A stretch of DNA of 64,000 nucleotides from a virus (IMGVR_UViG_3300045977_000235:39466-103465), one strand, 5' to 3'. Counted from the first letter of the stretch, positions 1 to 64,000 are shown. Numbers and translations are program-made. Notes: a model not told the origin generated them from the sequence alone.

Positions 1-2
1 AC

Positions 3-1491: not shown

Positions 1492-1665
1492 TATGACAGA
1501 GTGGAGTGTGTGTTTGAAGGGTGAAATCTATCTGACCATCCAAGCACGGAGCAAAGAAGAAGCAATCAATTGTGCTTTTAAATGTATCAAGGAAGTACCA
1601 GGATACTTCAAAGTGAGAGAAACATTATGTGAGTCATTAGATTTCAAAGATGATGACGATGATGT

Positions 1666-1989
1666 ATGATCCAATTAAATTATTTAATAAGGAGTCCACC
1701 TATGTTTTTAGGAATACCATTTTTAGAAATATTGTTGATGTTACAAATCAGTTGTATGCCCCCAAATATAGAGGGCAATATGCTGGTGTTCAAAGAGTGT
1801 AGGGCATTGCATCCTGCGGTTATATCGTGTATGACTGTGGGCAACACAGAAGTCATATTTCGACACGATTTAATGATTATGGCCTATGATCCTGAACCTG
1901 GTAATCTCAAAGCTGGCTACTATGAACGTACTTCTCCGGCCACTTGTGAATGGAAATATACAAGCATGGAGAAGAAACAAGATACATAA
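1666..1989 (+). CDS. Hypothetical protein (likely start 1702)
   Basis: TAAGGAG RBS directly after the palindrome at 1674-1688, before ATG at 1702. Confidence 0.5.
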   Translation: MIQLNYLIRSPPMFLGIPFLEILLMLQISCMPPNIEGNMLVFKECRALHPAVISCMTVGNTEVIFRHDLMIMAYDPEPGNLKAGYYERTSPATCEWKYTSMEKKQDT

Positions 1990-2177
1990 TGAAAGGAAAG
2001 AACTATGGAACCAAAAGATGTTGTACCCTATCTTCAGAAGAAAATTGAAAAACTATTCAAAGAACCACCTGCTCTATTGAAGGAACCTTATTTATTCTAT
2101 ACGCTTGCTTCTATCCCATTGTGTATTGTAGGAGGAACACTACTCTATCGTTTACTCTGTAAGAAGAAAGATACCGT

Positions 2178-2504
2178 GTGAAATACACATACCAGTACGT
2201 GTACGTGCTATCATTATTACTCCTGAGTATATTCTTTTCTCCTGTATCTTCTGCTACACTAACATGGACGTATAATGATAATCTTCATGAAGGATTTATC
2301 ATTTTTCGACGACAAGCAGGTACAGGATACATATGGCAAGAAATACAGAGAGTGGATAAAAACACGCTCAAATATGTGGATCAACATAATGATGTGTTGT
2401 ATTGCTACTATGTCAAAGCCTATGCTGGTACACGTATATCAGCACGGAGCAATATAGCATGTATGACGGTAATCAATCCTACAGATTTGGTGATACAAGA
2501 ATAG
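2178..2504 (+). CDS. Secreted single fibronectin type III-like domain protein
   Basis: Signal peptide, then TLTW..N..EGF.I.R...W..I..V..N...YVD...YCYYVKAY...S..SN.AC FN3 pattern. Confidence 0.65.
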   Translation: MKYTYQYVYVLSLLLLSIFFSPVSSATLTWTYNDNLHEGFIIFRRQAGTGYIWQEIQRVDKNTLKYVDQHNDVLYCYYVKAYAGTRISARSNIACMTVINPTDLVIQE

Positions 2505-2570
2505 AGACAAGTTCCTTGTCTCTTAAAAAGAGATAAAATTTCGGGGAACATAATATATATAAAAATAATT

Positions 2571-2602
2571 ATGGAGAGATAAATATATCTCTCCATTTTT
2601 TT
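2571..2602 (+). terminator. Rho-independent terminator ending the + strand block
   Basis: ATGGAGAGATA-aata-TATCTCTCCAT followed by a T-tract. Confidence 0.7.
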
Positions 2603-2639
2603 CTTTGAAAAATTCTAGTGAATAGTGGTATTAAATTAT

Positions 2640-3570
2640 TTAATTTTTAAAATATTTTTACAAAAAATTTTAGAAAATTTTTAGAAAATTTTTAGACAAA
2701 AAACAAATATACACTCGCCCTGACCCCCTCTGTCATTTATTTGACAGACCCCCTGAGCCATAGTCACATAGCTAAACGCCTATGCATCTATCATCTCTTT
2801 TTTATATTAGACCTTAGCTATACATCTATATGGTCCTTCGTTATACATCTAATAAGACCTTAGTTAAGTACCTATATGTTATATAGCTAAGGACCATATA
2901 AGTATATACACATATAGCTAAGGACCGATATGTATACTAAAAGTCTAAAATGAGAATGAGAATCACTATGAGTCCTTAGTTAAACACCTATATATTCTCT
3001 GTATCATAATGATACAGTATTACATATGTATTACATTGTGTATAACATGTATTACATATGTAATATCATCTGATATTATCAGATATATATACTCTTTTAT
3101 CTGATAATAGTACCATGTATTACACCATATAATATATGTAATATATAAATACACTCTACATATTTTACAAAGTAAAAGCTTACATATAGCGTGTTACGTA
3201 TACGTAACATACTAAACGTTTACACAGTACATAATATGTAAACGTTATGATACGTTTACATAATAACGTAAACGTATTGATACATAGTGCATACGTATGC
3301 ATACGTAGTAATATGTAAACGTTATAGTATCTTTATGTTATAAACAACGTTGTTTACGTATACGAAACACCATACACGTATGCATATGGTGTCTTATGTA
3401 AACAACAAAGCACAATACAATACTAAGGTATACATATATGGTGTTATATATACATATGCTTTCATATGAAAGCACTATACTCTATATGTAAACATTATGT
3501 ATCATTCGTTTACTTAGTAAACGTTTACACTCTATATGTATACATATATAGTAATACGTAAACGTTATAG
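2640..3570. repeat. Left non-coding motif array (A-tract repeats, TGTCA-N6-TGACA box, GACCTTAG/CTAAGGAC repeats, GTAAACGTT/TACGTA palindromes)
   Basis: No credible ORF; TAGAAAATTTT tandem at about 2660-2695; box at 2731-2746; AGCTAAGGACC at 2885 and 2916; TGTAAACGTTAT-type repeats at 3235-3570. Confidence 0.7.
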
Positions 3571-4167
3571 GATATATGTCTCTTTTTATCTTCTCTTATT
3601 CTATTATTATCCTCTCTTTATATATTATATAGAGGATAGTATCGTATGTTATGCTCTTATTAGTAGAGCATATATGCTCTCTTATAAAGAGCATAGTGTA
3701 TCTGTAGTACTTATAGAGAAAGAGAGTATTACTATAGAACATAGGCGATTAAATTATTTAATCTGTAGTCTTGTAGTGTGCTCTTATGGTGTAGTAAATA
3801 CGTAGTCTACAATATGCCTCTATAATGCCGTTTTTTATGTATACGTATTGAAAATAAGACGTTTTTTTAATAGGTGAGTATGTTTGTATGTCTTTATTAA
3901 AAAACAAGCTATATGCTCGTATAAGAGCATTATTGACATATACACGTTTTATACAAGATCTGTATAAACCTTATACAAGTCTTATATAAATCTTGTATAA
4001 GACCTATACATAATGACAAATCATTATCAATACATAGCAAAATGAAAGAGCATAAAAACAAGGTGAGTTTACAAAGTAAACTCTACAAGTACATATAGAC
4101 TCTATACAAGAGTCTTGTACTTGCTCTTATGCTCTTATAGCTTTACTTGCTTATTTCATAAGCAAGT

Positions 4168-4626
4168 TTATTGCTTATACAAGACACCATACACGAATCC
4201 TGTACTATCTTCTATGATACATATACTATGGTATGGTTCTAAACATGGGTATATTTCCATGTCATCTATATCTATCTCAATTTCTGTTACTGTACCGTTT
4301 TCTCCTAAAGCAATTATTTCCCCTATACCATCTAAAGACAATAGATGAAAATAAGCAACATATGCTTGCTCATTTTCATATTTACCTGGAGAAACAATCC
4401 TACCATCTACTATTCTATAGTCTTTTTCTATTTGCTCTTTTAATGTTTGCCCGAATTTTTCATTGTGTAGCATATGCTCTTTTTCCTCTCTTTTAATTGT
4501 TTCTTGTAGCTCTTGATAGAGTCTTATGTCGTTACCATATGGATCATCATACTCTGCATTTTCATGGTAGAGCATACTGTTATCCTCTCTTGACAATGGC
4601 ATAGTGTAGTAGTCAAAGTACTGCAT
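4168..4626 (-). CDS. Hypothetical early-region protein
   Basis: GAGGA RBS; acidic phage-like protein (SPGKYENE...Y pattern). Confidence 0.6.
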   Translation of the reverse strand: MQYFDYYTMPLSREDNSMLYHENAEYDDPYGNDIRLYQELQETIKREEKEHMLHNEKFGQTLKEQIEKDYRIVDGRIVSPGKYENEQAYVAYFHLLSLDGIGEIIALGENGTVTEIEIDIDDMEIYPCLEPYHSICIIEDSTGFVYGVLYKQ

Positions 4627-4851
4627 TGCTCTGTATCCTCTCTTGTATTAAGTACCGCAAATAATACAAGGATAATAGATGCAATGCTTGTTTGTTACGT
4701 TGTACTGTACTTTACAAGCAGTACAAAGCATACAATCTGTACATTGATACTGTTTTGCTTTGCAGTCTTTTTCCTCTGGTACATCGCTTGCTTGCTCTTT
4801 TTGTTGAGCAAGCAATAAGTGTAGTTTATTGAGACTTATTTGCATTGTCTT

Positions 4852-5130
4852 TTATCCTCTATAGGCGAATTTTTTATCTGTCGTATAGTAGACGTACTGC
4901 GCCAATCTTTCCTTGTAGTTTCGTAGTATGCCTCTGTTTATATTGTCTTGAGTCCATCTGCTTTGTTTGTCATATGATGGTATGCTTGTATGGCAGAGTT
5001 TTTTAAACATGCTATATGCTTTATTAGAAGCAATTTCCAGAGTATCACAAGACTCTATATCCTTGTATGTTATCAAGTCTTGTGTACTTGCTACACTGTA
5101 CCCTAAAGCATAGTGTGTTTTCTGTGACAT
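4852..5130 (-). CDS. Hypothetical protein, paralog family A
   Basis: Y..GYS...AS.QDL ... KLC ... GI..NY..R shared with the two upstream ORFs. Confidence 0.6.
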   Translation of the reverse strand: MSQKTHYALGYSVASTQDLITYKDIESCDTLEIASNKAYSMFKKLCHTSIPSYDKQSRWTQDNINRGILRNYKERLAQYVYYTTDKKFAYRG

Positions 5131-5206
5131 TGTAAAAGTATCCTCTATAAATTGTTGTTTTATATGTTGCTCTATACACTTGCTTATAAAACAACATATA
5201 CACTTG

Positions 5207-5536
5207 CTACAGACTTGCTTGTAGTCTGTTTATTCTACTTGTGTAATTTGCCCGAATTCCTCTCACTATGCCACAAGAGTACACACTAAAGACGTTATAC
5301 TGTCTTGTCTCTTGTAGTGTCTTGAGTACCTTATACAATGCATCTGCCATTGTATCGAATTCAGTATAGCAGAGCTTATAGAATACCTCTCTTGCTTCTA
5401 AAGACGTTGTAATAGTACCGTAGTGTGACCATGTTACAGTATAAGGTACTTGTTTCCCTTGTATGATTAAATCTTGCCAAGACGCAATTGCAAAGCCTTG
5501 ACTATATCCTTGTCTGTAGATGTCTCTTTTTGTCAT
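5207..5536 (-). CDS. Hypothetical protein, paralog family A
   Basis: YRQGYSQGFAIASWQDL...FYKLCY...GIVRGIRANYTSR; AAGGA RBS before MTKRD. Confidence 0.65.
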   Translation of the reverse strand: MTKRDIYRQGYSQGFAIASWQDLIIQGKQVPYTVTWSHYGTITTSLEAREVFYKLCYTEFDTMADALYKVLKTLQETRQYNVFSVYSCGIVRGIRANYTSRINRLQASL

Positions 5537-5600
5537 GCGCTTTTTTCCTTGTCGTGTTATAAAGAGCATATGATAGACATATGCTCTTGCTCTTGTTTGC

Positions 5601-5951
5601 TTACTTACTCTTTAATGCTTTTATCCTCTCTTTATAGTTTTTCTTAATACCTGCCGCTATACCATCATCAAAAACAAGCCAGACATCATAAGATTTGCTT
5701 TCTTGTGTCTCGTTTAATGCTTGTGCAGTAAACTCGAAAGGTGAGTATTCTCTATTCATTTCCTCTGCATCATAGCAGAGCAAGTAAAACAGATCTTCTC
5801 TGTCTGTATTGTCGTTTACAGTCTCAATACAAGCATTGTAGATGTGTTTAGGTACTTTATCACCTATAGATGGTAAGTCTTGATAGGATGCTATCATGTA
5901 ACCTCTACTGTACCCTATGCTGTAAATGTATCGCTTATTCATTATTTGCAT
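5601..5951 (-). CDS. Hypothetical protein, paralog family A
   Basis: YSIGYSRGYMIASYQDL...FYLLCY...GIAAGIKKNYKER. Confidence 0.65.
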   Translation of the reverse strand: MQIMNKRYIYSIGYSRGYMIASYQDLPSIGDKVPKHIYNACIETVNDNTDREDLFYLLCYDAEEMNREYSPFEFTAQALNETQESKSYDVWLVFDDGIAAGIKKNYKERIKALKSK

Positions 5952-6182
5952 ACCTCTTGCTGTATTGTGTGCATTCTCTGTCGTAAAGAATCAAGTACCT
6001 TGCCAGTGTAACAATGAAACGATGGTATAGTGTCTGTAATGCTTGTTTGCTCTATATAGTACCTTTCCATTGCATATTGATAACACTCTACTCCTACCAT
6101 GCAAAACAAGTCTGCAATGTATCCTCTATAAGTACTTTTCTTGCTTTCATAGTGGTCAATTGCTTTGCGTGCTATTGTCTCG

Positions 6183-6371
6183 TTACTGCTCTGCATTGTT
6201 GAGTATCCTACGATAGATGATTCTGTAGTATGCTGTATACGGTGCATTTATACGGTAGTCTTTTAGATTGTCTCTTGCTTCTTTTCTGCTTTCACTACAG
6301 CAAAGATCTTCCCACCTATCATAAAAACCTTGGACAACGTAGCAGTACAAGTACTTGTTTGCTCTTTTCAT
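6183..6371 (-). CDS. Small hypothetical phage protein
   Basis: AAGGA RBS; YVVQG...WED......EA...LKDYR.N pattern. Confidence 0.55.
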   Translation of the reverse strand: MKRANKYLYCYVVQGFYDRWEDLCCSESRKEARDNLKDYRINAPYTAYYRIIYRRILNNAEQ

Positions 6372-6548
6372 TGTGTGCTCTCTTTCCTTGTAGGATTAAA
6401 TTATTTAATCTGTACTGTGCTCTGTACCGTACTTACTTGTTACGGTACAGAGTATGCTTTTTTCGCTCTACAATGCCTCTATTTTACGTTGTAATGTTTG
6501 CCCTATACTTTCCTATGCTCTCATGAGAGCAATGCACTATAGAGCATT

Positions 6549-6956
6549 CTAGGCTGTTTTTTCGGCCATTGTAGACGTATATGCTTGTGGCACAGTAAAG
6601 AGCTTGCTTGTATCTTTACGCCAGACATAAGCGCCAGAGTGCAAGCAATTATCGTATATATAGAAGTAATCAATTGCTTTGTACTCTGGCGTATCAATTG
6701 CAAGTCTCTTGCCGTTTACGACATAAGAAAACACAAGCTTATGCCATATGTCTTTAGCTTTACAGTCTTTATATCCTCTAATGTACTCTTTCATGTATAA
6801 AGGTAGTCTATTATAGTCATCTGTCATTAGTACAATTTCCAGATACTTGTTAGTAATCTGCTTGCCAGAGTAACAGTAAAGCTCTGCATTGCAGTATATA
6901 TCATCTATACGTGCTAGCATTCTGTCTTTTATGTTGAGCATTCTATCTTTACGCAT
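6549..6956 (-). CDS. Hypothetical early-region protein
   Basis: GAGGA RBS; tightly packed in the - strand gene run. Confidence 0.55.
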   Translation of the reverse strand: MRKDRMLNIKDRMLARIDDIYCNAELYCYSGKQITNKYLEIVLMTDDYNRLPLYMKEYIRGYKDCKAKDIWHKLVFSYVVNGKRLAIDTPEYKAIDYFYIYDNCLHSGAYVWRKDTSKLFTVPQAYTSTMAEKTA

Positions 6957-7200
6957 TGCTTTTGTTTTCCTCTTGTAGAGCTTGTCTGCATTCTACGAAT
7001 TTTACATTGTTAGTGTTTAGGTAGTGAGTAAGCAAGTATTCGATATAGTCTATAGTCTCAAGATTGCTATGCATATTGAGACTTTCTCTTGCCACAATAA
7101 GAGCTTTATCAATGGCTCTTACTAAAGCTCTATAGTCTGCATTATATCGTTTCATAATAAGACTCGTTACTACCTTTGTGCTCTTTAATAATATCGCCAT
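6949..7200 (-). CDS. Hypothetical protein (start probably about 7158)
   Basis: Overlap coupling with neighbouring ORFs. Confidence 0.45.
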   Translation of the reverse strand: MAILLKSTKVVTSLIMKRYNADYRALVRAIDKALIVARESLNMHSNLETIDYIEYLLTHYLNTNNVKFVECRQALQEENKSNA

Positions 7201-7351
7201 TCTCTAATAAGTAAACGCTTTCATTGGCACATCTACCATATGCAGACTTACTATGGTCAAGGTATATGTTAAACGTCAACAGAGCTTGTCTTTTATTGTT
7301 TGTCGTAAAGACGAATCCTACGTTACCAACTAGCACACTATACCGATCCAT
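7142..7351 (-). CDS. Hypothetical protein
   Basis: AGGGAAAG RBS; YSV.VGNVG.V pattern. Confidence 0.55.
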   Translation of the reverse strand: MDRYSVLVGNVGFVFTTNNKRQALLTFNIYLDHSKSAYGRCANESVYLLENGDIIKEHKGSNESYYETI

Positions 7352-7421
7352 TTTGCTTTCCCTTATATGATGCTATCATGGTACTTGCTTATGATTTGCT
7401 ATACCATGATAGCGTTTTGCT

Positions 7422-7703
7422 TTAGTTCTCTACACTGTAGAGCTTTCTTGCTTTATACTTCTTAACAAGGTTATTGTACTCTCTTGCTTGTAAATGCAAT
7501 TGCTCTATAGGCAATATATCCTCTCTTATTAAGTCATGTTCAAGATTACTCGTTTGGCTTGTATTTGTCTCGTAACAAGACTCTACTCTATAGCATTCCT
7601 CTTGCGTGTTATAGTGGTATACCATAACGAGTCTATAAGGTTTACCATCTGTATCATTATTCCTACGTACTACTTGATAGAACCAGATATTACTTTGTGC
7701 CAT
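7422..7703 (-). CDS. Hypothetical protein
   Basis: AAGGT RBS; packed ORF. Confidence 0.55.
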   Translation of the reverse strand: MAQSNIWFYQVVRRNNDTDGKPYRLVMVYHYNTQEECYRVESCYETNTSQTSNLEHDLIREDILPIEQLHLQAREYNNLVKKYKARKLYSVEN

Positions 7704-7709
7704 TATGCT

Positions 7710-7997
7710 TTACCTTTCCCTTGCCATTGATAGGATCTGCAAATAATCTACTTGCGATTCGATAGCATGAGATACTAGATCCATGATAAACCAAGCATTG
7801 TGTAACATATGGGTCTGCATTTTAGGAGGTATTGTCTTTTCTACTTCTTGCTCTATATAGTTTTTCAATGTCGATACTTTATCCTCTCTTGTACTTTTTG
7901 CTAGTTTTTCCAGATACGGTAAATGTACCTTGTCATTATTTAACCATAGGCTAACAATGAAAGTCTCAAAATTTGTCATACTCTGGTATTCTGCCAT
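7710..7997 (-). CDS. Hypothetical phage protein
   Basis: TNFETF.V.LWL.ND pattern seen in small phage/mobile-element proteins; AGGA RBS. Confidence 0.55.
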   Translation of the reverse strand: MAEYQSMTNFETFIVSLWLNNDKVHLPYLEKLAKSTREDKVSTLKNYIEQEVEKTIPPKMQTHMLHNAWFIMDLVSHAIESQVDYLQILSMARER

Positions 7998-8224
7998 TGT
8001 TTGCTTTTCCTCTATTTGTCGTTACCGTATACGCAAGTCTGCTCTTTTACTACTTCCATATGCAATGTATGCATTCTCGTTTCATAGTAAATATTCATAT
8101 GCATAATAGCGGCATATGACAGTACTACAAAAAGAGCAAGTACACTTGTCTTGATAGCAAATAGCATTTTGTTTTCCTTGTGTAGTGAGAGCATAGCAAG
8201 CAAGTACTATGCTCTCAGATTAAA

Positions 8225-10246
8225 TTATTTAACCTCTTTATAGAGAATAGCATACATATGTACTGGGATTTGTTTATGATACTTGCGTAACATTTTCAAT
8301 GCCGCAGTAATCTGTTTACTTGTTAGCTTGTCTCTTTCAGCAAGAGATCTGCCAAATTTGCCGTCTAATTTGTTGTATCCTATATCATTCTTCTCTGTAG
8401 CTTGATCCAGGTTTCGATTGTCCAGAAAACGACAAGCAGAAAGTACCGTATCATGGATCTGCTTTGTATACGTTACCTCTTGCACCGTAGTCTGTACCGT
8501 AGTTTTTCCTACTGTGCTCTGCAATACCGTGTTTTTGGTGTCTGGCGTAGTCTGTACTGCGTTTTGTTTCTCTACCTTGCCAGAGTATAGGGTACTTGAT
8601 TTGCTATGCTCAGATTGGCTTGTAGAGCTTTTTTCTCGTATAGGTTTATCCTCTCGTATCGTGACCTTGTTATCAAGTACTGCGTTTATAACACGGTACT
8701 TGTTAATAAAAGCTCTGATAAAAAGATTGTCCAGAGTGTTAGGTATTACAAGGTACTGTGCTAGTACTGCGTTTTTCTGTCCTATACGTAACAGTCTATC
8801 CTCTGCTTGTATGTTCAATAATGGTGACCATTCTGCCTCTACAAAGATTGCAATAGATGATCTAGTAAGCGTAAAGCCTACGCCTATCGCTCCTATAGTG
8901 CCTACAAGTACTACTATTTGTCCATCTTGAAATTGTTCTATAGTCTCTTGTCGTTTCTTAGGTGACACACTACCATCTAAAAAGATAGTATTAAAGTACT
9001 CTGCAATTTTAGCACCAACCTCTTTATGGTGAGTAAAGATTACTAATGGTGTAGTACTGCTCTCTTGTACTACCTTTATATGTTCTATAGCAGGATTAAC
9101 TTTTGCTTTGCCAAGTTTTGCTCTTTCCTCTGCTATATCCTCAAAACTTATCTTGTACTTGCGTAATACTTCTTGAAAAGTATCTGGATCTAGATCTGTT
9201 AATTCCTCTATATTGAAAGGTAAGCTACTATCTTTATATGTCGATTGTAGCTCTATTATTTGCCTTGTCTTTTCTGGCAAATCTTTTAGAACTTCGTCTT
9301 TAGTCCTACGAATCATAATTTTACTGCGTAGTAAGCTCTGCAATTCGGATTCGTTACTACTACCTTTATTATTCCAACCATACCGACCTTGACTAGCAGA
9401 GCAATACCTTTTTTCGTAGTATGATTTGCTATCGAATAGCTTTGCATTATGAACAATCGGCCATAGTTCTATAGGACGATTCAAGACAGGAGATCCTGTC
9501 ATATATAGTACTTGTGTACCATACTCAACAATGCCATTGATAGCAGGTATTGTATTGTATGTTCTGGTAATCGGATCGAATTCCTTATGTTCTGGTTTTC
9601 CTATAATTGCTTTAGTACGTTGTATATCTGGATTCTTTAGTAAATGGGATTCGTCACAGATTACTAGATCCCAAGGATGACAGAGCTTGTCATATAAAGC
9701 TACAGCAAGATCGTAGCTTATGATAACAATACCGCTATCTGCTACTCTGTCAGTACTTCTTGTTACAAGACAATACTTGTGTGCATCTACAAGCCAAGAA
9801 AAAGACTCGTATAACCAGTTAAGCTTGAGACTACTAGGGCAAACAATCAAGATGTCTTGATAACCTTTATAGTTTATCAAGCCAAGAGCTTGAATAGTCT
9901 TACCAATTCCCATGTCGTCAGCAAGTAGACATACTGGCTTGTCAAGCAAGTATTCTATACCTGCTATCTGATACGAGTAGTATTGCTTGTCTGCATTGCA
10001 TGGTACTTGTAGATTGCTTGTAGTAGCATAGGACGCTTTTAAGGTATTGATAAACGGTAGCAGATTGTCTCTTGTTTCCTTGTCTGCATATGCAATTAGA
10101 TGCATAGCATTCGCGGCATTAGTGGTATACCATACCTTTCTGGCATAGTCGAAACGCATATTTGCCTTGTGTGCTAGCATTCTCTCGTTATAGTCGCAAG
10201 TAAAGACATACTCCGAATCTTTCATTGTTAGTATAGGATCTGCCAT
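8225..10246 (-). CDS. SNF2/SWI2-family (HARP/SMARCAL1-like) helicase-ATPase
   Basis: LLADDMGIGKT (I), LVICDESH (II), MTGSPVLNRPIELW (III), GVGFTLT (V), QAEDRLLRIGQ (VI); GAGGT RBS before MADPIL at 10246. Confidence 0.9.
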   Translation of the reverse strand: MADPILTMKDSEYVFTCDYNERMLAHKANMRFDYARKVWYTTNAANAMHLIAYADKETRDNLLPFINTLKASYATTSNLQVPCNADKQYYSYQIAGIEYLLDKPVCLLADDMGIGKTIQALGLINYKGYQDILIVCPSSLKLNWLYESFSWLVDAHKYCLVTRSTDRVADSGIVIISYDLAVALYDKLCHPWDLVICDESHLLKNPDIQRTKAIIGKPEHKEFDPITRTYNTIPAINGIVEYGTQVLYMTGSPVLNRPIELWPIVHNAKLFDSKSYYEKRYCSASQGRYGWNNKGSSNESELQSLLRSKIMIRRTKDEVLKDLPEKTRQIIELQSTYKDSSLPFNIEELTDLDPDTFQEVLRKYKISFEDIAEERAKLGKAKVNPAIEHIKVVQESSTTPLVIFTHHKEVGAKIAEYFNTIFLDGSVSPKKRQETIEQFQDGQIVVLVGTIGAIGVGFTLTRSSIAIFVEAEWSPLLNIQAEDRLLRIGQKNAVLAQYLVIPNTLDNLFIRAFINKYRVINAVLDNKVTIREDKPIREKSSTSQSEHSKSSTLYSGKVEKQNAVQTTPDTKNTVLQSTVGKTTVQTTVQEVTYTKQIHDTVLSACRFLDNRNLDQATEKNDIGYNKLDGKFGRSLAERDKLTSKQITAALKMLRKYHKQIPVHMYAILYKEVK

Positions 10247-10351
10247 TGTAAATATACCTCTTATTAAACGCAGTAAAGAGAGTAGCATAGTGTACCTTGT
10301 CATTATTAAGGTACAAGGTACAAGGTAAATGTACCTTGTACCATGCCATTG

Positions 10352-10723
10352 TTATCGTATCGTTATGTTGCCTGAAATGCTACCTTTCCTCTCTTTCTTA
10401 GGTAGACTTTCTCTTATGATTTGCTCTGTTACCTTTAGACTTGCACCGTACTTTTCTTGTGCTCTGTCTATATCCTCTTGTGACATACTACAGATCTGAT
10501 TAAATAATTTAATCGCTCTATCTTGTGAGCAATTGAGAACGCCACATAAACGAGTAAGAGTATCAATGTTTACTGGCGTTTTTTGGTAGTACGTAGGCAG
10601 ACCAACTATGATGTCACCTTGCAAGTGTAGCGTTTCATCTACTGTATATCTACCAGACTTTAGCTTGAGTGTATCTGGTATCTTGATTGCTTTAATTGCA
10701 GCATATAGTAAGTCTCTTGTCAT
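10352..10723 (-). CDS. Hypothetical protein
   Basis: GAGGT RBS; contains an internal palindrome copy (AIKLFNQ). Confidence 0.55.
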   Translation of the reverse strand: MTRDLLYAAIKAIKIPDTLKLKSGRYTVDETLHLQGDIIVGLPTYYQKTPVNIDTLTRLCGVLNCSQDRAIKLFNQICSMSQEDIDRAQEKYGASLKVTEQIIRESLPKKERKGSISGNITIR

Positions 10724-10740
10724 TAGCTTATACCTCTATT

Positions 10741-11067
10741 CTAGTGCTGCTTTTTTAACTTGATAGACATGACATCTGCAAGTAAATCTATCATCTCTTG
10801 CTTTGGCATTGTCCAACTATCGCCTAAAATACTTTCATAATGTTTCTCTGTTATGCTGTGCAAGTATTGTATCTGGTTTAATACTTCCTCCCAAGTACTA
10901 TCTTTATGTATCATATACATAACAGCAAGTTTTGTTTCTTGCGATGGTACTTTACTTGCTACAGATTGCTTGTGATTTGCTTGTGCTCTTTTTGGCTTTG
11001 CTATTACATCTTGAGTACACAAGACAAGAGACACTACAAGCAACATAAACACGCAAAACTTTTTCAT
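10741..11067 (-). CDS. Hypothetical exported protein
   Basis: MKKFCVFMLLVVSLVLC...VIA signal-peptide-like N-terminus. Confidence 0.5.
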   Translation of the reverse strand: MKKFCVFMLLVVSLVLCTQDVIAKPKRAQANHKQSVASKVPSQETKLAVMYMIHKDSTWEEVLNQIQYLHSITEKHYESILGDSWTMPKQEMIDLLADVMSIKLKKQH

Positions 11068-11409
11068 TCTCTTTCCCCTATGAAACGAGAGCACACAAGC
11101 GTATTGTGTAGTGTGCTCTCAGAATACCGTTTTTTCGTCCTACAATACGCCAAATTTCGATTTGTTTTCCAAGGTAGTGTGTTTATACATCTTGAGAAAA
11201 CAAATCGTTTTTAGGGCAAAACAGAGCATAAAGTAAAAAAGACTCGTTACACTCAAGACAGAGCAACAAATTTGCTGCATCTACTATTGTGCAAGTATCA
11301 TCTGTTACTGCTTGCTTGCAATTATCACAAAAGCTTTTGATTGTCATATGATGCTACTCCTAAAAAATAAAGAGAGCACAGTATCATACTGTGCTCTCGT
11401 ATTGTTTAC

Positions 11410-12768
11410 TTATTTGTTGAGCTTTGCAATTTTATCATAACAGACTTTCAAGTCTGCTACATAGTCCAGAGTACCATCTTTGGACTTTTCAAAATTGATA
11501 AGCATAAGCAAAACATTTTGCAAGCCAACACTTGCTCTTGCTCTTACTACGTTTGTATTAGCAGACATAAGCAAAGCTTTTACTGCGGGATCTTTCTCTT
11601 TAGAGAAGTCTGTACCTAAAGATACTGGCGTATCAGACCTTGGCGTACTTGATACAGTACCTTTATTTGTTGGTGCATTGTTAGGAGTAGCAGGTACATT
11701 GCTTGTGCTAGCAGGTACATTGTTTGTACTTGCTGGCTTGCTAGTACTTGCTTGTGACTTGCTTGTGCCAGTGTTAGCAGTACTAGCAGATCCCTTCGGT
11801 CTGCCTCTTGTACTGCCTTGTGTGCCAGTACCTTGTTTTGGTGCTTTGTTGCCGTTTTTAATGATTTGCTGTGCTAGTGCATCATTCTGTACTTTAGTCT
11901 CTTGTGTAGTGCTATTGTTGCCGTACTTCTTACCTGTCGCAACAATACTCTGAGCAGTAGTAGCACTAATAAGACCTTTCTCTACTGCCTCTACTACCTC
12001 TGGTGTAGCTTGTAACAAGCTAAGCTTTTGTGTAACCCAAGGTGCAGTTTTGCCCATTTTGCTAGCTATATCTGCTTGAGTCCATTTATGCTCTTTAATC
12101 AAGCAAGCAATACACTCTGCAATTTCCATTGCTTCTAATGATTTGCCTTGATTGCTTGTAAGATTTGCAAACAAGAGCTTGTCTCTTGCTGTATCCTTGT
12201 CTGCATACATAGCAGGTAAACCATTGATAGCAAAACCATCTGCTATCAATTCTCTTGCTGCTTGTAAACGTCTGTGACCTTCGGTCAAGTACAGAGTAAA
12301 TGCACCGTTTACTGTATCTGCATATACCTTGATAGGAGGAAGATTCGCAGTACCGTTTACCTTGATATAATCTTTCAAGTCTTGCAAATCAAGGTTTTTT
12401 CTAGGATTAATACCTGCAATTGTTTGTACTTTGTTAGGATCGACAAGGAAAGCGTCTAAAGATTGCAAGATACCATTAGACTCTGGCGTAGTGGTAACAG
12501 TAGACTTGCTTGCTTTTGGTGTCTTTACTTTAGGCATTGTAGCAGTATCCTCTTGAGTAGTGGTAACAGTCTCTTGCACCGTAACAGTAGACTTGTTAGC
12601 TTTAGGCGTTTTTGGTGTCTTATTTGCTGGTATGGTAGCAGTATCCTCTTGTGCAATGATAGACTTTGTTTGACCGTTTACTGTAATCGTAGCAGACTTG
12701 AGAGCAGTATCCTCTTGTACGTTGTTAGTAACGATAGACACACTAGCAGACTTTTTAACTTTAGGCAT
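11410..12768 (-). CDS. ParB/Spo0J-family protein (ParB N-terminal CTPase-like domain plus HTH) with repetitive basic tails
   Basis: NPR..DL..L...I...G...PPI.V...L..GHRRL.A arginine patch; N..QGK.L...E.A; WTQADIASKMGKTAPWVTQKLSLL HTH; V.KG.IS...A. Confidence 0.85.
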   Translation of the reverse strand: MPKVKKSASVSIVTNNVQEDTALKSATITVNGQTKSIIAQEDTATIPANKTPKTPKANKSTVTVQETVTTTQEDTATMPKVKTPKASKSTVTTTPESNGILQSLDAFLVDPNKVQTIAGINPRKNLDLQDLKDYIKVNGTANLPPIKVYADTVNGAFTLYLTEGHRRLQAARELIADGFAINGLPAMYADKDTARDKLLFANLTSNQGKSLEAMEIAECIACLIKEHKWTQADIASKMGKTAPWVTQKLSLLQATPEVVEAVEKGLISATTAQSIVATGKKYGNNSTTQETKVQNDALAQQIIKNGNKAPKQGTGTQGSTRGRPKGSASTANTGTSKSQASTSKPASTNNVPASTSNVPATPNNAPTNKGTVSSTPRSDTPVSLGTDFSKEKDPAVKALLMSANTNVVRARASVGLQNVLLMLINFEKSKDGTLDYVADLKVCYDKIAKLNK

Positions 12769-12859
12769 TGCTTCTATATCCTTGTGAGTAGTGAGAGCAT
12801 AACACTATGCTATGCTCTCTTGATTAAATTATTTAATCCCTAGCAGATGGACAGTAGTT

Positions 12860-13171
12860 TTATAGGCTTTCTCTTTCTCTGATAAGTTTATCAATACGAC
12901 AATCAAGATCCATCTTGTATTGCTCTTGCAATGCATCCTTGGTAGTCTGCAAAGTCTCAAGCTCTTTTTGCAAGAGCTTTATTCTGTTTTCCCTACACTC
13001 AATTGACCTTGTTACCTCTCGCCATTGTTGACGTACAGACTTTACAAGGTACTGCTTGCCAGATACATACTTGCTTGCTGGTATTGCTTTCTTGCCAGTA
13101 TATGCTTTCGTACTAGCAAGCTTGCTGTACATTGTTGCTGGCATTGTCTCAACAATAGTCTGCTCTTTCAT
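12860..13171 (-). CDS. Hypothetical coiled-coil protein
   Basis: AGGGAAAG RBS; heptad-like C-terminal half. Confidence 0.55.
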   Translation of the reverse strand: MKEQTIVETMPATMYSKLASTKAYTGKKAIPASKYVSGKQYLVKSVRQQWREVTRSIECRENRIKLLQKELETLQTTKDALQEQYKMDLDCRIDKLIRERESL

Positions 13172-13587
13172 CTGCTTTCCCTTATAGTGTAGTGAGCAAT
13201 TGTTACAAGGTACAAGATACGATTTGCTTATAGTCTCTTTCCTCTCTTATAGTGTGCTTTTACTCTCGCCAGAATTTTGCATAATGTACAAGGCAATAAT
13301 GGCAGAAAAGATACTCAAGACAAGCAAGCTTGTCTATCATCCTAAAGATCCATACTGGCATAGTATAGTGTACTTCTTGCTTTTCCCATTTACAGCAAGT
13401 AATACCTTTAAACTCAATATGCCTCTTGTATCTGCCATTGATAGCGTTTTGTACAAGATACTTGATTCTGTTTTGCATTGTGCTTTCCTCTCGCTTGCAC
13501 TCAAGACAGAGTGCTATGCAATAATTGTACCATTCGGCCACTAATTAAAGCAAGTAAAGTTTTGATGCTAGCAAATCACTAGCAAGT

Positions 13588-13974
13588 CTACAGAGAAAAG
13601 TACATATAATCGCTATATGTACTGTAATGTGTCTGCTTGTTAAACAGAAAAACAATTGTACCTTCGTGACCTTGTACTGTTACCTCTATATAATTGTTTG
13701 TCTCTTTTCTTACTCTGCCATACTGTAAGCTATTATCTGCCATACTCTGGATCTTTACTTTTTCCCCTATCATATGTTTGTTAGTAGATACGGTATGCTC
13801 TACAGTAGGATGCACTCTTACAAGGTATGGATTATTTGCTACTCGCTTGACCTCTATCTTGTCGTTTACCTTTAGACCATAATGCGATCCGTATAATTCC
13901 TCTGCTTTACTGTTACGTCTTACTCTCACTACTACTCTGCCATTATTTACTGCGATTACTTTAGCTTGTGCCAT
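13588..13974 (-). CDS. Hypothetical protein, paralog family B
   Basis: AGGAG RBS; C-terminal half resembles 14440-14649. Confidence 0.6.
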   Translation of the reverse strand: MAQAKVIAVNNGRVVVRVRRNSKAEELYGSHYGLKVNDKIEVKRVANNPYLVRVHPTVEHTVSTNKHMIGEKVKIQSMADNSLQYGRVRKETNNYIEVTVQGHEGTIVFLFNKQTHYSTYSDYMYFSL

Positions 13975-14439
13975 TGTTCATACTCCTATGGTAAATGGAA
14001 AAAGCACAGTACAATACTGTGCTCTTGCTAGCTAGTCTCTTGTTTCCTCTTGCTCTCTTTCATCGTTACAAGTAGAGCACACTATAACGATGAAAGAGTA
14101 ATCTGCATTGTGCTCTACAATATAGGCAGTATTGCCACAGTCTGGACAACAAAGATCTTCCATTATGCTTTCCCCTATATATGATTTGCGACAAGAAACA
14201 AAACAAGGATAAACAAAACGAGACTTGTACAGACAATCCAGAAAGCAGACATTAGTTTATCCTCTTTACAGTGTAGTACTTGCTATCTTTCTGTACCCTA
14301 TGTACTACACGCCTATAGTGAAAATGCATTAAAACACGGTAACAGTATCTTTCCTCTCTTATTACTCTACCATACTGTGTCTTACCATCTATAGAGCAAG
14401 TAATAGATACTTCGTATTCTGTAAACATACTTTCCTCTC

Positions 14440-14649
14440 TTACTCGTTAGGATACAGAAAAAGATAATCTTGGAAGGTACAACGTAACTGTGAGCTTTTA
14501 TTAAACCTATACTGTACCTTTCTGTTACCGTAAGAGGTAAGAGCAATTGTGATATAGTCGCTTGTTTCTCTTACCACTACACCGTATTGCGTGTAACTAT
14601 CCATTGTTCTAACAGTCTTGATTGTTTGCCCTAACAATTGATACTGCAT
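14440..14649 (-). CDS. Hypothetical protein, paralog family B
   Basis: G..K...M...QYG.V..ET..YI...F.FNK...DY shared with 13588-13974. Confidence 0.6.
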   Translation of the reverse strand: MQYQLLGQTIKTVRTMDSYTQYGVVVRETSDYITIALTSYGNRKVQYRFNKSSQLRCTFQDYLFLYPNE

Positions 14650-15619
14650 TATGCTCTTTCCTATCGGATTAAATTATTTAATCTGAGAGCATACCAGAGT
14701 ATTGCCTTGTACTCTTTAAACAAGCTTTGTCTTTACTCACAGTAAAGTCTGGCGATTCGTAGCACGTGCTACAGATTTGCTTGTAAAGTATGCTCTCTTT
14801 CCAGAGTACAGTAGAGTGCTACCACTACTCTTTAACAAGCTTTGCGATACTCGCAAGTATCGCTTGGTGATCCATAGCATGTAACATGCTACAGTTTTGC
14901 TTGTACCTTGTACTCTGTAATGCTCTGCACTATAGACTTGCAATCTATAATTGTTGCATTACAAGCAATACCTAAGTCTTATTGTGTGCTTAGTTAATAC
15001 CTCTCTATACTAGCATGGTATATATTGCTTGTGCTCTGCAATGTACAGAGTCCAGATAGACAAGAGGTATAGTCTTACAAGGTAAGTTTTGTTTACAAGA
15101 GAGCATACCTTAGTATGCTGCATAACAAGTAAACAATGTTTGCTCTGCTATTGTCTCTTATCATCTGCTTTTATTTTTTCATCTTGTCTCAAGTACACAA
15201 TATATATACGCTCTTATCATGGCGTATGCTCTTATCATTCGCAAGAGTGTACTTCTATAGTCTTACTTGTTACTCGTATCAATGCACCGTTTACTTTATC
15301 AATATGCTATGTTTGCTTATGCAATCTTATAGACTTACTTATTGATAGGCTTTCCATATGCGTATGCTTTTTAGCTAGCGTCTTATATGATACTTTGCAA
15401 TGCTATAGGCTGTTATGGTTTGGCGTACCAGAGGATAGTATTGCATTGTGTTTTACAATGTTATCTATCCTGCTAGGGTTATCTTAGGCTAACCCTTAGT
15501 TTTACCTGCTAGCATACCTCATGCTGTTACTGGCTCTACTGCTTGAGTACCCTACCAAGTCTCAAGTATGCCTCTACATCTACCGTATGCCTGCTATTTG
15601 GTTTTAAAAGAGCAAAAAA

Positions 15620-15649
15620 ATTGTAACAAGTTTATCGGAATTAAAGCAA
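15620..15649 (-). promoter_or_regulatory. Possible sigma70 promoter facing the early block
   Basis: TTGCTT-18-TACAAT on the - strand. Confidence 0.35.
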
Positions 15650-15770
15650 GCAAACTTTAACTGTATTTTTTTTCAATATGTTATGCGGATTAAATTATTT
15701 AATCCGCTATATTCTGGCGTGTTTTCTAGGCTTTCCTCCTATGTACCCAAAGGTACGCGCTTGCATATGT

Positions 15771-15786
15771 TGCAAAGTGTATGCCA
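15771..15786 (-). promoter_or_regulatory. Sigma54-type -24/-12 element
   Basis: TGGCATACACTTTGCA vs consensus TGGCACG-N4-TTGCW, exact GG-N10-GC spacing. Confidence 0.55.
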
Positions 15787-15854
15787 AACTATGGCATTAT
15801 TGATACTCGTTTCTCATTGTGTGCATTTTTTCTGTTTTGCCCTATATCGTAGTC

Positions 15855-15870
15855 TGGCATACTTTTTGCT
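15855..15870 (+). promoter_or_regulatory. Sigma54-type -24/-12 element
   Basis: TGGCATACTTTTTGCT. Confidence 0.5.
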
Positions 15871-16050
15871 TGTGCGTTTTGCCCTATCGAATGCCGTTTT
15901 TTGGTGTCTGTAAAGCTCTATACTGCGTTTTGATGGTAAGACGTGCTACCATACTGGCATATGCCGAAAAATTGAAAATAGAGAAAGCATACGCATCTTG
16001 ACTAGCAAGTATGCCATATTGTAATTTTTTCCTCTCAAGTCTGCATAGTC

Positions 16051-16066
16051 TGGCATACTTTATGCT
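16051..16066 (+). promoter_or_regulatory. Sigma54-type -24/-12 element
   Basis: TGGCATACTTTATGCT. Confidence 0.4.
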
Positions 16067-16189
16067 GCGTAAAAAAATTGCATTATTGATATTTTTTATC
16101 ATTCCTCTGCTAACAATAGATCATAGTCACAGCCTATTAAAAACAGACTTTTTCATAGAAAAAATTCATAAAAAAATTTTACGAATTTT

Positions 16190-17010
16190 ACCTTGTACTG
16201 TCGTTTACATCCTATGCATAACGTTTACACCATACGATAAATGTATGCTTTCATCTGTTTTTATCCTCTCTTATTCTACTGTTATCCTCTAATGTCTGCT
16301 TTTATCCTCTATCGTATGCTTTTATCGTATAACGTATACGATAGTATGCAATCGTATACTTTTGACGGATTAAATAATTTAATCGTTTACATTTTGCGTG
16401 TTACGTATACGAAAAGATCCATCTGTAAACTTTATTATCATAAAGTTTACAGTCTGGCAGAGTGCAGACTGTTAGCTAAGGTCTTAACAATCTTATAGCT
16501 AATCACCTATCGACTTCGGCCATGATTAAATAATTTAATCTTTCTCATTGTGAGATACTTTTCAAAAATGAAAATGAGAATCAAAAAGATTAAATAATTT
16601 AATCGCCTATTAAAGATCTTTAAGACCTCATAGTGAGTACATAAAAAATAATAAGACCGCAACAATAGACTTATAAAGACCGTAGAAATATTGGTATACG
16701 CCTATATGGTCCTTAGACGTATAGCTATATATACATATTGCTGCGGTCTTTATTAAAGAATTTAATCGTGTCAAAATTTTGACACGTCAAAAATTTTACA
16801 CCTGTTAGAATTTTGACAATAAAGACCTTGTTTTTACGTCATTTTTTTGACATGGGGGTTGCGCGTGCGTGCGCGTGTGACGTGTGTGCGAGAGGGATAT
16901 GTGAGAAAAGAGAAGGTCTTTGGTGGGAGTGTGTGTATTTTTGGTGAGTGTATAGGAAATTTTATAGAGATATATGTATATAGTATATACATATATACAT
17001 ATATCTGTGT
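16190..17010. repeat. Right non-coding motif array mirroring 2640-3570
   Basis: CGTTTACA/CGTATACG repeats, TAGCTAAGGTC, CTATATGGTCCTT, AAAATGAGAATC, four TGTCA-N6-TGACA-like boxes at 16769-16852, four 15-bp palindromes. Confidence 0.7.
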
Positions 17011-17880
17011 GCGAAATATTTATAAATTTAATTCTAATTTTAATTTATTATATAGCAAAATTTTTTCTTCTCGTTCACGCTCGGAATTTTTTTCACGGCG
17101 CAATAAACTTTTTTCTCTGCGAATTAACCGTGCAATCGTTTCATTTTCTGTTTCCATTTGCTTCTGAAAAATCTCACATTCAATCCACATTTCTCCCCAT
17201 TCTTCTGACATTTTTATTTTCAAAAACTTCCGAGAATCACCACTGACTTTGTGAATTTGTGGATAATCTTTTTCCAGGTTGTACTGTAAATCCACAAAAA
17301 AATCACGGAAAGAATCATACGTTGCCGTAAAAGTGTAACGATTCATACAAAAAAGAATCATGTCAATTTGTTTTTCAATTTGTTTGCGTTCTGTTTCAAC
17401 ATTGTACTTTTCTCGGATGAAATTCTCTGTGATTTCCATGTGATTTTCTCCTGGTTTTCTTTTGAAATGTGTATGGATTTGTGTAGGATTTTCTACAGAA
17501 ATCAAAACGAAATTGAATTGATTTCTGTAGAAAATTGAAATGAAAATGAAATGAAAAATGATCCTATTTCGCTATGCCCCCGCCCATTTTTAGGGTTAAA
17601 GTGACTCCCTCTATATATTTCTATTAACAAACAAAATTAAATTATTTAATCCTCCCCTATCCGTACTATTAAAAAACATATAGTAAAGAACAATGTCCAT
17701 AACAAACAGAATACTACGACTCCTAACTCTGGTATATACTTCCTCATATTTTCCCTATGAGAATAGGTTCGTGAACACTGTTAGTATATACAGTATAACA
17801 TAGACTCCACATAATATCAATCCAAAGATAAAGAATAATAAAACGTATATACCATTATTATCATCTTTCATTGTGCGCCT

Positions 17881-19378: not shown

Positions 19379-19592
19379 TATACTTTACTTTCTAGTTTTA
19401 TGATTCTCTTTTGTAGTTCCCCGTTTTCTATGGAGAGATCGTAGAGTTCTCTTTGTATTCTATGTTCAATCTTCTCTATACGATCTAATAGTTTCTCACA
19501 GAAACTTTGGAGTTGTCTTATAGATCTGTACTCCCATGAATATTGATGCCCGTAATTCCCATCTAGTTTCATATGTTCTCCTATTAAATAAT

Positions 19593-63999: not shown

Positions 64000-64000
64000 A

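Follow-up and report, generated by a model that had tools for sequence, protein, structure and literature searches.

A minus-strand gene block flanked by the longest non-coding regions of a phage genome

The window analysed here is a stretch of 64,000 nucleotides from a phage assembly, and all positions are counted from its first letter. The assembly as a whole is 102.5 kb long and, as judged by comparison of its ends, closes as a circle: its terminal 940-bp segments are alleles of each other (78% identity) flanked by identical 40-mers, and this overlap sits inside a giant tail-fibre gene. Given this closure, the ends of the contig do not mark those of the genome. The interval from about 2,620 to 17,070 is one discrete, cis-bounded module, a 14.4-kb stretch in which a minus-strand block lies between the genome's two longest non-coding regions. 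Its features are given below, with the strand where one is assigned. Conservation was assessed in G001, the sole relative found.

2546–17183: zone without CTTCA, GTGGA, GGAAC, AGCTG and their reverse complements
2571–2596, plus strand: hairpin (11-pair stem, then a T run) closing the plus-strand operon; it lies immediately outside the unit
2660–2705: tandem TTTTAGAAAATT-type repeats just outside the boundary, partly conserved in G001; they resemble what we take to be the CodY box
2674–2790: left boundary element, conserved in G001, with a nearly genome-unique box
2708–2719: outer 12-nt inverted-repeat word, left copy
2724–2728: C5 run of the left boundary
2731–2746: single TGTCA-N6-TGACA box of the left boundary, followed by a second GACCCCCT
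2804–2990: left outer array, a large palindrome of GACCTTAGCTA / CTATATGGTCC units and then two copies of AATGAGAAT; core units conserved in G001
3001–3150: ATGTATTACA repeats and palindromes, left flank only (three copies, none elsewhere)
3175–3570: left inner array, GTAAACG (nine copies, both orientations) and TACGTATACG units; islands conserved in G001
3571–4167: non-coding tail of the block, which shares its vocabulary and holds hairpins and, at 3747, a perfect 17-bp palindrome
4168–14649, minus strand: gene block of about 23 ORFs (PHROGs/Pfam, codon usage)
8225–10303, within the minus-strand block: SNF2 helicase
11410–12768, within the minus-strand block: ParB/KorB-HTH protein
14944–16199, minus strand: non-coding leader upstream of the block's first gene, with block-type vocabulary and GTATGCCAGACT-type repeats
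15685–15707: 17-bp palindrome within a hairpin of the leader
16200–16450: right inner array, GTAAACG and TACGTATACG units, mirror partner of 3175–3570
16368–16753: right outer arrays, with 17-bp palindromes, TAGCTAAGGTC and two further palindromes, one with AAAATGAGAATC at its centre and one of CTATATGGTCCTTAG
16368, 16524 and 16588: three perfect 17-bp palindromes of the right outer arrays
16769–16852: three TGTCA-N6-TGACA boxes at an exact 34-bp spacing (starts 16769, 16803, 16837)
16854–16953: right boundary, with a G5 run, a stretch whose G+C content is high by the standard of this genome and which contains an alternating purine-pyrimidine tract, and the outer 12-nt word
16942–16953: outer 12-nt inverted-repeat word, right copy

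Two traits described in an initial annotation of the window, many tiny ORFs and a single strand switch, are both present: besides the helicase and the ParB/KorB-HTH protein, the block holds about 21 orphans of 54–152 aa, and the only strand switch within the window is at its left edge. The right non-coding stretch had been drawn too short, and extends over about 14944–17019. The block genes use their own AGAGGA/AGGAAAG-type ribosome-binding sites, and GC content, codon usage and ribosome-binding sites all differ from those of the rest of the genome. The SNF2 helicase of the block is recorded on six contigs. Structural genes (tape-measure, J-type central tail fibre) are found in the genome, and DnaB, PolA and UvsX are located 40 kb away from the flanks of the block. 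A faint deoxyribonucleotidase-like match (PHROGs, E 0.007) was seen outside the block.

The two flanks are diverged inverted repeats

Every motif quoted in the initial annotation is present at its position, and the same motif families do follow in mirror order on both sides. Global alignment of 2690–3720 with the reverse complement of 16150–16970 scored 277, compared with 215 ± 14 for shuffles and 225 ± 14 for permutations of 40-nt chunks, none of which reached that score (0/100 ≥ 277), and a repeat run of the mirror alignment gave z = 4.6. Aligned in direct orientation, the two flanks gave no signal (score 209). They form a diverged inverted repeat about 0.8 kb in length, with a longest exact inverted match of 24 bp, and an outer pair was newly found in the 12-nt word at 2708–2719 and 16942–16953 (11/12 reverse-complement match). 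In shared 10-mers they are each other's best partners in the genome (184 and 160; medians 37 and 47).

Several of the shared motifs are nearly confined to the flanks. With at most one mismatch, TGTCA-N6-TGACA occurs five times in 103 kb: once on the left (2731), three times on the right and once as a stray. AGCTAAGG and CTAAGGAC each have four copies in the two flanks and none elsewhere in the genome, while the counts in the flanks and elsewhere are 4 and 1 for AGGTCTTA and 4 and 2 for ATGAGAAT. GTAAACG is found nine times in the left flank and four times in the right, compared with 14 times in the 88 kb outside the unit.

The left boundary is 85–97% identical to that of G001, whereas identity is 40–60% on either side of it and 71–80% elsewhere. 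The half-sites of the TGTCA-N6-TGACA box are kept in G001 and the 6-nt spacer is different. As the G001 contig stops inside the left array, this comparison covers the left boundary only.

The block avoids four 5-mers used by the rest of the genome

The enclosed DNA had been described as having a different word usage, and counts per 2 kb bear this out: TGCTCT/AGAGCA occurs 5–15 times in the block and 0–3 times outside, and CTTG/CAAG about 50 versus about 15 times. A tetranucleotide profile along the genome, which had been proposed as a check, separates the block from the rest by its log-likelihood ratio (+0.26 ± 0.08 in the block, −0.26 ± 0.07 outside). The tetranucleotide distance between the block and the rest has z = 6.3; the terminal repeats of T5 (4.4) and K (3.4) are compositional outliers as well.

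The sharpest difference concerns CTTCA, GTGGA, GGAAC and AGCTG. These four 5-mers occur 721 times in the genome and not once across a gap of 14,639 bp, where about 119 occurrences are expected (ln P about −119). The edges of the gap lie within about 230 bp of the inverted boundary elements, and its non-coding parts are likewise free of the four words (27.6 expected). The left edge of the gap is at the same site in G001, and the compartment is therefore old. Restriction-type palindromes show another pattern. For AGTACT, 22 sites are expected in the block and 17 are present, compared with a single one in the other 88 kb, where 20 are expected; GAATTC occurs three times in the block and nowhere in the rest of the genome; this tolerance is the opposite of what would be predicted if the first DNA in were the most exposed. 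The block likewise lacks most of the palindromic hexamers avoided elsewhere in the genome (0 found, 23.5 expected).

Terminase kinship and promoters

The large terminase subunit (TerL) matches that of SPO1 with E 7e-23 and that of K with E 1e-15, and gave no significant match to the T5 terminase. Its 823 matches in the phage collection are mostly from Staphylococcus, Bacillus, Enterococcus and Listeria phages. In Caulobacter phage Seuss, whose TerL is also related, a terminal repeat of 1,748 bp is annotated, and small minus-strand genes lie at the left end. This suggests a terminase lineage in which packaging gives fixed ends and terminal repeats, as a hint rather than proof, because identity is only 22–27%.

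Sigma-A-type promoters scoring at least 11/12 are absent from the block and its flanks, and nine are found in the plus-strand arm and the replication arm. The block had been labelled 'early', which is not supported, because it lacks a strong promoter of this type while nine lie elsewhere. Promoter-like sites are not enriched in it either (65 found, 74.6 expected). The terminal-repeat genes of T5, SPO1 and K, unlike the block, are driven by strong host-type promoters.

Comparison with known phage systems

The terminal repeat of SPO1 is about 13 kb, and the block, at 14 kb, falls within this range. The Herelleviridae K and SPO1 share with this phage a related terminase and small orphan genes in kilobase-long blocks. 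The 8,486-bp terminal repeat of phage K has a 12-bp inverted repeat across its two edges (PMC6022877, PMC4111496), which we verified in K; here, short inverted repeats are present at both edges as the pair of 12-nt words and the pair formed by the C5 run and the box. However, PHROGs identified no terminal-repeat families of K or SPO1 in the block and no protein homology between their repeat genes and the block genes, the SNF2 and ParB genes inside the block set it apart from both, and its avoidance of specific 5-mers far exceeds that in K. The structural genes here suggest a long-tailed phage, whereas K is described as a myovirus (PMC7596081).

In T5, the pre-early genes are on the minus strand, the terminal repeat has a 1-kb untranslated repeat region along its inner edge, and two inverted repeats of 131 bp are separated by 3 kb (bioRxiv 10.1101/866236). 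Expression of the pre-early genes runs towards the left tip, and the orientation of the block is similar; it too has a large untranslated repeat region at its inner edge with distant inverted partners, and, as in T5, an inverted repeat pair kilobases apart brackets a gene segment, which in T5 is variable. The first-entering DNA of T5 lacks a restriction site carried by the rest (GAATTC, 0 in the repeat and 6 in the unique part), which is comparable to the missing words of the block. The differences are that the T5 terminase is not detectably related to this TerL, that homologues of T5 A1, A2 and dmp were not found in the block by PHROGs, that the inverted repeats of the T5 stop region hold paired DnaA boxes, which are not enriched here, and that the T5 repeat ends are not mirror images.

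Mirror symmetry spans about 0.8 kb of arrays here, 12 bp in K and no detectable length in SPO1, and a search for extended symmetry at the repeat ends gave no signal in K (z −0.1), T5 (z 1.3) or SPO1 (z 0.3). In T7, short-repeat arrays (SRL and SRR) adjoin the 160-bp terminal repetition and are thought to be active in concatemer processing, as Dunn and Studier are said to have reported in 1983. Both phages have arrays of one short motif family on either side of a terminal repeat, which here is a candidate one; however, the T7 arrays are outside a very short repeat, whereas those described here are inside the edges of a 14-kb block and comprise several motif families.

The block as a candidate long terminal repeat

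We give a probability of about one half to the reading that the block is a long direct terminal repeat of about 14.2 kb, made by an SPO1/K-type terminase, and the first DNA to enter the host. The initial annotation had argued for a terminal repeat from the arrays, and that step alone is not sufficient, because the repeats of K, T5 and SPO1 lack such extended mirror arrays. A bounded terminal module is favoured by the circular assembly, the position of the longest non-coding regions at its flanks, the TerL kinship, the inverted boundary pair with its nearly genome-unique boxes, the parallel with K, the similar layout of T5, the compositional islands, the conserved left boundary and the word-free zone. 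Evidence against a terminal repeat is the lack of strong host-type promoters, of homologues of T5 A1, A2 and dmp and of K or SPO1 terminal-repeat families, together with the unenriched DnaA boxes and the tolerance of AGTACT in the block. The assembly closes as a circle with a single copy of the candidate repeat, as headful or cos genomes would also do.

The genome would then be linear, its repeat collapsed to a single copy in the circular assembly. On the concatemer, TerL and an HTH-bearing TerS would recognise the inverted boundary elements at both edges, namely the outer 12-nt word, the C5 run and the TGTCA-N6-TGACA box. Because these elements are inverted, opposite strands would be cut at the two edges, and fill-in synthesis after cutting would duplicate the 14 kb. 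As the inner 0.8 kb of each edge is a mirror image of the other, both tips of the virion DNA would show an identical order of binding sites from the tip inwards. On infection, the left tip may enter first, with the block read leftwards from the leader at 14.9–16.2 kb, and the three phased boxes and arrays at its inner (right) edge would be placed like the injection-stop region of T5. The private forbidden 5-mers may reflect contact with nucleases to which only this module is exposed.

A more specific and doubtful idea is that the genome has two exposure compartments: the 14.4-kb module bounded by inverted repeats would enter and act alone first, in a T5-like two-step entry by a phage unrelated to T5. 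The ban on CTTCA, GTGGA, GGAAC and AGCTG would then be the sequence footprint of this separate entry.

Alternative explanations

A non-terminal position of the block seems rather unlikely to us. It would then be an internal gene module whose two control regions share operator or iteron sites and are bound by the same proteins, its own ParB/KorB-type protein for instance. The genome would have its physical ends at other positions, or would be packaged by a headful mode. The ParB/KorB-HTH gene within the block fits this, as do the perfect 17-bp palindromes, nine of whose 13 copies in the genome are between 3747 and 16588 (three in the right flank), and the conserved islands of the left flank, which look like footprints of bound protein. 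RK2 KorB has 13-bp OB palindromes, and the combination of a ParB-family HTH protein with a dispersed 6-1-6 palindrome suggests a likeness to it; this putative binding concerns the genome-wide palindrome and not the boundary boxes. An internal module leaves unexplained why four common 5-mers are missing from a contiguous 14.6 kb, including non-coding DNA, whose edges fall at the boundaries, and why codon usage and ribosome-binding sites differ. In addition, the kinship of TerL argues for a genome with fixed ends and a terminal repeat, and no other long non-coding region is available to host the ends.

The differences in GC content, codon usage and ribosome-binding sites could also mean another history instead of another exposure. 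The block would then be a horizontally exchanged cassette or hitch-hiking mobile element, from or among related phages, with terminal inverted repeats of about 0.8 kb. Its restriction-site spectrum differs in both directions (AGTACT and GAATTC tolerated, four 5-mers banned), terminal inverted repeats are present, the near-identical boundary element in the relative could be a recombination anchor, and T5 relatives are most variable between the two inverted repeat regions. However, no transposase, integrase, invertase or other recombinase was identified among the 23 block ORFs with PHROGs or the 10 with Pfam, although the orphans could hide one, and no target-site duplication adjoins the outer repeat words. 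In G001, the left end is retained at this position, together with the old word-free edge. The block also shares with the rest of the genome the dispersed 13-bp palindrome and the absence of most avoided palindromic hexamers. We hold a cassette to be less probable still.

That the flanks are replication origins or partition sites, made of iterons and AT-rich DNA and served by the helicase and ParB of the block, is improbable as an explanation of the whole, and could coexist with the other readings. GTAAACG is about 36-fold enriched in the left flank in both orientations, this flank has 27% G+C and large palindromes are present, with the SNF2 helicase and ParB genes between the flanks. However, neither an initiator (Rep) nor a ParA gene was found, DnaB, PolA and UvsX are distant, no enrichment of DnaA boxes is seen (21 consensus boxes genome-wide, one in the flanks), and an origin does not explain the word-free zone. 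An assembly chimera or invertible segment, as the sharp compositional break and the inverted repeats on both sides might suggest, is very improbable: a second sample yielded the left junction in an independent assembly, the block helicase is on six contigs, the longest exact inverted match is just 24 bp, no invertase was found, and the block has no tail-fibre genes, alternative ones included.

Implications for phage DNA entry

If the ban on these 5-mers is indeed the footprint of a separate entry, two-step injection might be predictable from the sequence alone. The mirror arrays would then represent a new kind of entry-stop and end signal that makes both tips of the phage DNA alike.

Genome organisation and likely host

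In IMG/VR, the contig totals 103,465 bp, of which the window covers bases 39,466–103,465. Its first 940 nucleotides (genome 1–940) are 78% identical to positions 63061–64000 of the window; identical 40-mers bound the two copies, both of which lie within a giant tail-fibre gene. The assembly is therefore circular and carries two alleles of a variable gene. The assembler walked a strain bubble twice; the complete genome is thus a circle of ~102.5 kb, although it is labelled 'linear, 76% complete'. This closure means that the contig ends are not the genome ends. The genes are arranged in three arms:

Structural arm, minus strand: genes for TerS with HTH, TerL, portal, protease, capsid, tape-measure and central tail fibre
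Small nucleotide-metabolism genes, plus strand: arm ending at 2504
Long arm, 4168 to the window end, minus strand: the block described below, then methyltransferase, PolA, ribonucleotide reductase, UvsX-like recombinase and DnaB

The host is probably a low-G+C Gram-positive bacterium, as indicated by strong Shine-Dalgarno sites and by promoters of consensus sigma-A type. The closest cultured phages are remote (PolA 37% identical at best, TerL 22–27%). No tRNA genes were found, and the genome encodes no sigma-factor domain. At least a dozen palindromic hexamers are broadly avoided in the whole genome, block included. In the 88 kb outside the block, 16 palindromic hexamers, including GAATTC, GATATC, CTGCAG, GGATCC, GGTACC and GTGCAC, occur 0–2 times each, compared with 8–21 expected.

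Mirror-ordered flanks enclose the block

The block (about 2,620–17,070) consists of minus-strand genes, among them those for an SNF2 helicase and a ParB/KorB-HTH protein, between two non-coding flanks. No other non-coding stretches in the genome are as long as these flanks (2505–4167 and ~14944–17019). Each is the best partner of the other in shared 10-mers, and several 8-mers have four copies in the flanks and none or one elsewhere. All motifs quoted in the initial annotation are present where it had placed them, and its claim that the same motif families recur in mirror order is borne out by alignment. Alignment of the left flank with the reverse-complemented right flank scored 277, compared with 215 ± 14 for shuffled sequences and 225 ± 14 for permutations of 40-nt chunks, which preserve the motifs and destroy their order. 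As none of the 100 permuted controls reached 277, the flanks are diverged inverted repeats of ~0.8 kb. No signal was seen between the two flanks in direct orientation. Each flank contains an inner motif array (3175–3570 and 16200–16450) and, further out, a set of boundary elements:

Left outer end, 2674–2790: 12-nt word, C5 run and one TGTCA-N6-TGACA box
Right outer end, ~16769–16953: the same 12-nt word (11/12, inverted), G5 run and three TGTCA-N6-TGACA boxes spaced exactly 34 bp

Apart from these two boundaries, TGTCA-N6-TGACA occurs a single time in the 103 kb when one mismatch is allowed.

Three further features were observed in the flanks. Adjoining the right boundary box, ~30 nt of alternating purine-pyrimidine sequence (CG/TG, 16859–16890) stand out in this 32% G+C genome and might readily adopt the Z-DNA form. 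Immediately outside the left boundary, positions 2660–2705 contain two or three AATTTTTAGAAAATT-like units that overlap and are conserved in part in the relative described below; they look similar to the CodY box known from low-G+C Gram-positives. A further ~1.1 kb (14944–16100), upstream of the block's first gene, lacks a credible ORF and contains many GTATGCCAGACT-like repeats and GCATAC words. This stretch could be a structured leader or non-coding RNA. An Rfam search for non-coding RNAs returned only spurious hairpin matches.

Conservation of the left boundary

A single relative was found, a 13.9-kb IMG/VR contig whose TerL protein is 90% identical and whose DNA is 71–80% identical. It spans TerL to the left flank and ends inside the inner array, and the comparison thus covers the left boundary only. 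The 120 bp around this boundary are 85–97% identical between the two phages, compared with 40–60% for the adjacent non-coding DNA, and the cores of the inner motifs form conserved islands in the alignment. This conservation shows that the left boundary is a constrained cis-element. In the left box, the half-sites are kept and the 6-nt spacer differs, as recognition by a dimeric protein would predict.

Searches for other relatives gave little. A megablast of the block against cultured phages yielded no match, nor did the flanking RNA-ligase-like gene used as query. With the SNF2 protein and a four-sequence alignment as queries, no match in IMG/VR, JGI metagenomes or GTDB genomes exceeded 32% identity. 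Contigs of 24.2 kb and 24.8 kb carry the helicase and a relative of it with 71% identity. The ParB-type protein had only 27–30% matches among plasmids. A pattern scan with the left boundary recovered only the one relative, and scans with the 17-bp palindrome, the right-boundary box and the hairpin cassette gave chance matches or none.

The block is a separate word-usage compartment

The distinct word usage noted in the initial annotation proved to be pronounced, as a tetranucleotide profile separates the block completely from the rest of the genome. The Glu codon GAG makes up 54% in the block and 16% in the rest, C-ending Asn, Asp, Tyr and His codons ~40% and ~15%, and GGC 31% and 5%. Ribosome-binding sites are AGAGGA/AGGAAAG-like in the block and GGAG in the rest. 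Canonical 5-mers are also missing more often, with 35 of 512 absent from the block compared with 10.6 ± 3.2 in same-size segments of the rest.

The sharpest difference concerns CTTCA, GTGGA, GGAAC, AGCTG and their reverse complements. These words occur 721 times genome-wide and not once between 2545 and 17184, where ~119 are expected; the next-largest gap elsewhere is 921 bp. From the block's own 4-mer counts, 16 would be expected, and 27.6 in its non-coding parts alone. As the words are missing from non-coding DNA and relative to the 4-mer expectation, their absence reflects a DNA-level rule and not a codon effect. Both edges of the word-free gap are no more than ~230 bp from the inverted boundary elements. 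The words stop at the boundary in the relative too, where its 897 bp on the array side contain none of them and the 13 kb outside contain 87. Two palindromic hexamers also differ between the compartments: AGTACT occurs 17 times in the block (22 expected) and once outside (20 expected), and GAATTC three times inside and never outside.

Genes and palindromes of the block

The block ORF nearest the left tip (4168–4626) encodes a very acidic 152-aa protein (pI 4.4, 21% Asp+Glu), conceivably a DNA mimic. It had no family or fold match, and an Atlas search gave no usable result. Three adjacent small ORFs (4852–5951; 92, 120 and 116 aa) share an N-terminal GYS-x-G-x-x-IAS-x-QDL-like motif and so form a small paralogous family. 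PHROGs searches of the block ORFs recognised neither T5 A1, A2 or dmp homologues nor any family of the K or SPO1 terminal repeats. The block contains no strong host-type promoter, compared with nine in the other early-looking arms.

The 13-bp palindrome TTAAATWATTTAA has 64 copies in the 103 kb (in the window, e.g., at 19584, 21050, 22331, 32411, 33520 and 53121). In ~25 cases its centre lies 13–26 nt upstream of a start codon, directly 5' of the ribosome-binding site; in two it directly follows the -10 box of a consensus promoter, and copies also occur within coding sequence. Nine of the 13 perfect 17-bp versions are inside the block. A conserved cassette precedes both the ParB gene (12768–12840) and the ORF at 8012 (8150–8235), in the order 17-bp palindrome, GAGAGCATAG...CTATGCTCTC hairpin, ACTACNCACAAGGA and start codon.

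A possible terminal repeat

In the reading we consider best, to which we give roughly even odds (probability about 0.5), the block is a terminal repeat of ~14.2 kb and also the first DNA to enter the host; its 'early' expression is an assumption. The boundary elements would then be cutting or recognition sites, and through the mirrored inner arrays the two DNA tips would be built alike. A nuclease that is to nick opposite strands at either edge of a repeat in a concatemer needs its sites as an inverted pair.

Several known systems resemble this arrangement. TerL shares significant similarity with the SPO1 and phage K terminases, enzymes that package long exact terminal repeats, and not with that of T5. 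In Caulobacter phage Seuss, a TerL relative, a terminal repeat is annotated, with small minus-strand genes in its left copy. In phage K, a 12-bp inverted repeat straddles both edges of the 8,486-bp repeat, as stated in the literature (PMC6022877, PMC4111496) and verified here in its sequence. The tetranucleotide deviation of the block (z 6.3) compares with z 4.4 and 3.4 for the proven repeats of T5 and K, which served as controls and are among the most deviant segments of their own genomes. In T5, the inner edge of the repeat is occupied by 1 kb of untranslated repeat sequence, and a variable gene segment lies between 131-bp inverted units spaced 3 kb apart. The EcoRI site is absent from T5's first-entering repeat, whereas six are found in its unique part. 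GAGAC/GTCTC is likewise missing from the T5 repeat (1–10219), where 8.3 are expected from the rest of that genome.

Some observations fit the terminal-repeat reading poorly. The block lacks a strong host-type promoter, no phage sigma factor was found, and PHROGs linked no block ORF to T5 A1, A2 or dmp or to a K or SPO1 terminal-repeat family. The AGTACT and GAATTC pattern does not follow from a simple model in which the first DNA to enter is the most exposed; a partly separate history, with cassette exchange at conserved boundaries, would predict it, as would exposure to nucleases that differ over time. The repeat ends of K, T5 and SPO1 lack extended mirror symmetry. We thus rejected mirror arrays as generic to long terminal repeats; they are a peculiarity of this phage and not diagnostic. 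A DnaA-box stop signal was also rejected, as DnaA boxes are not enriched.

Among the alternatives, an internal module under shared regulators is less likely and does not account for the word-free zone. A mobile or exchanged cassette is unlikely. It accounts for the vocabulary of the block. However, PHROGs and Pfam recognised no recombinase gene in the block, no target duplication was seen next to the outer words, and such a cassette must be old because the relative has the same edge. A function of the arrays as origin or in partition is quite unlikely, and may coexist with any of these readings. An invertible segment or a simple chimera is very improbable, and both were rejected.

Implications

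In this uncultivated phage, the limits of the module can be read in three independent ways: from the inverted boundary elements, the conservation peak and the word-free zone. To our knowledge, only a few groups of cultured phages have long terminal repeats that carry the genes expressed first, and two-step DNA entry has hardly been described outside the relatives of T5. If the block is indeed a terminal repeat, its word-free signature would provide a means of finding first-entering DNA in metagenomic phage genomes, and the missing words would give pointers to the host nucleases encountered by this DNA. The mirror arrays of 0.8 kb would then be candidate end-recognition or entry-pausing sites, which are directly testable.
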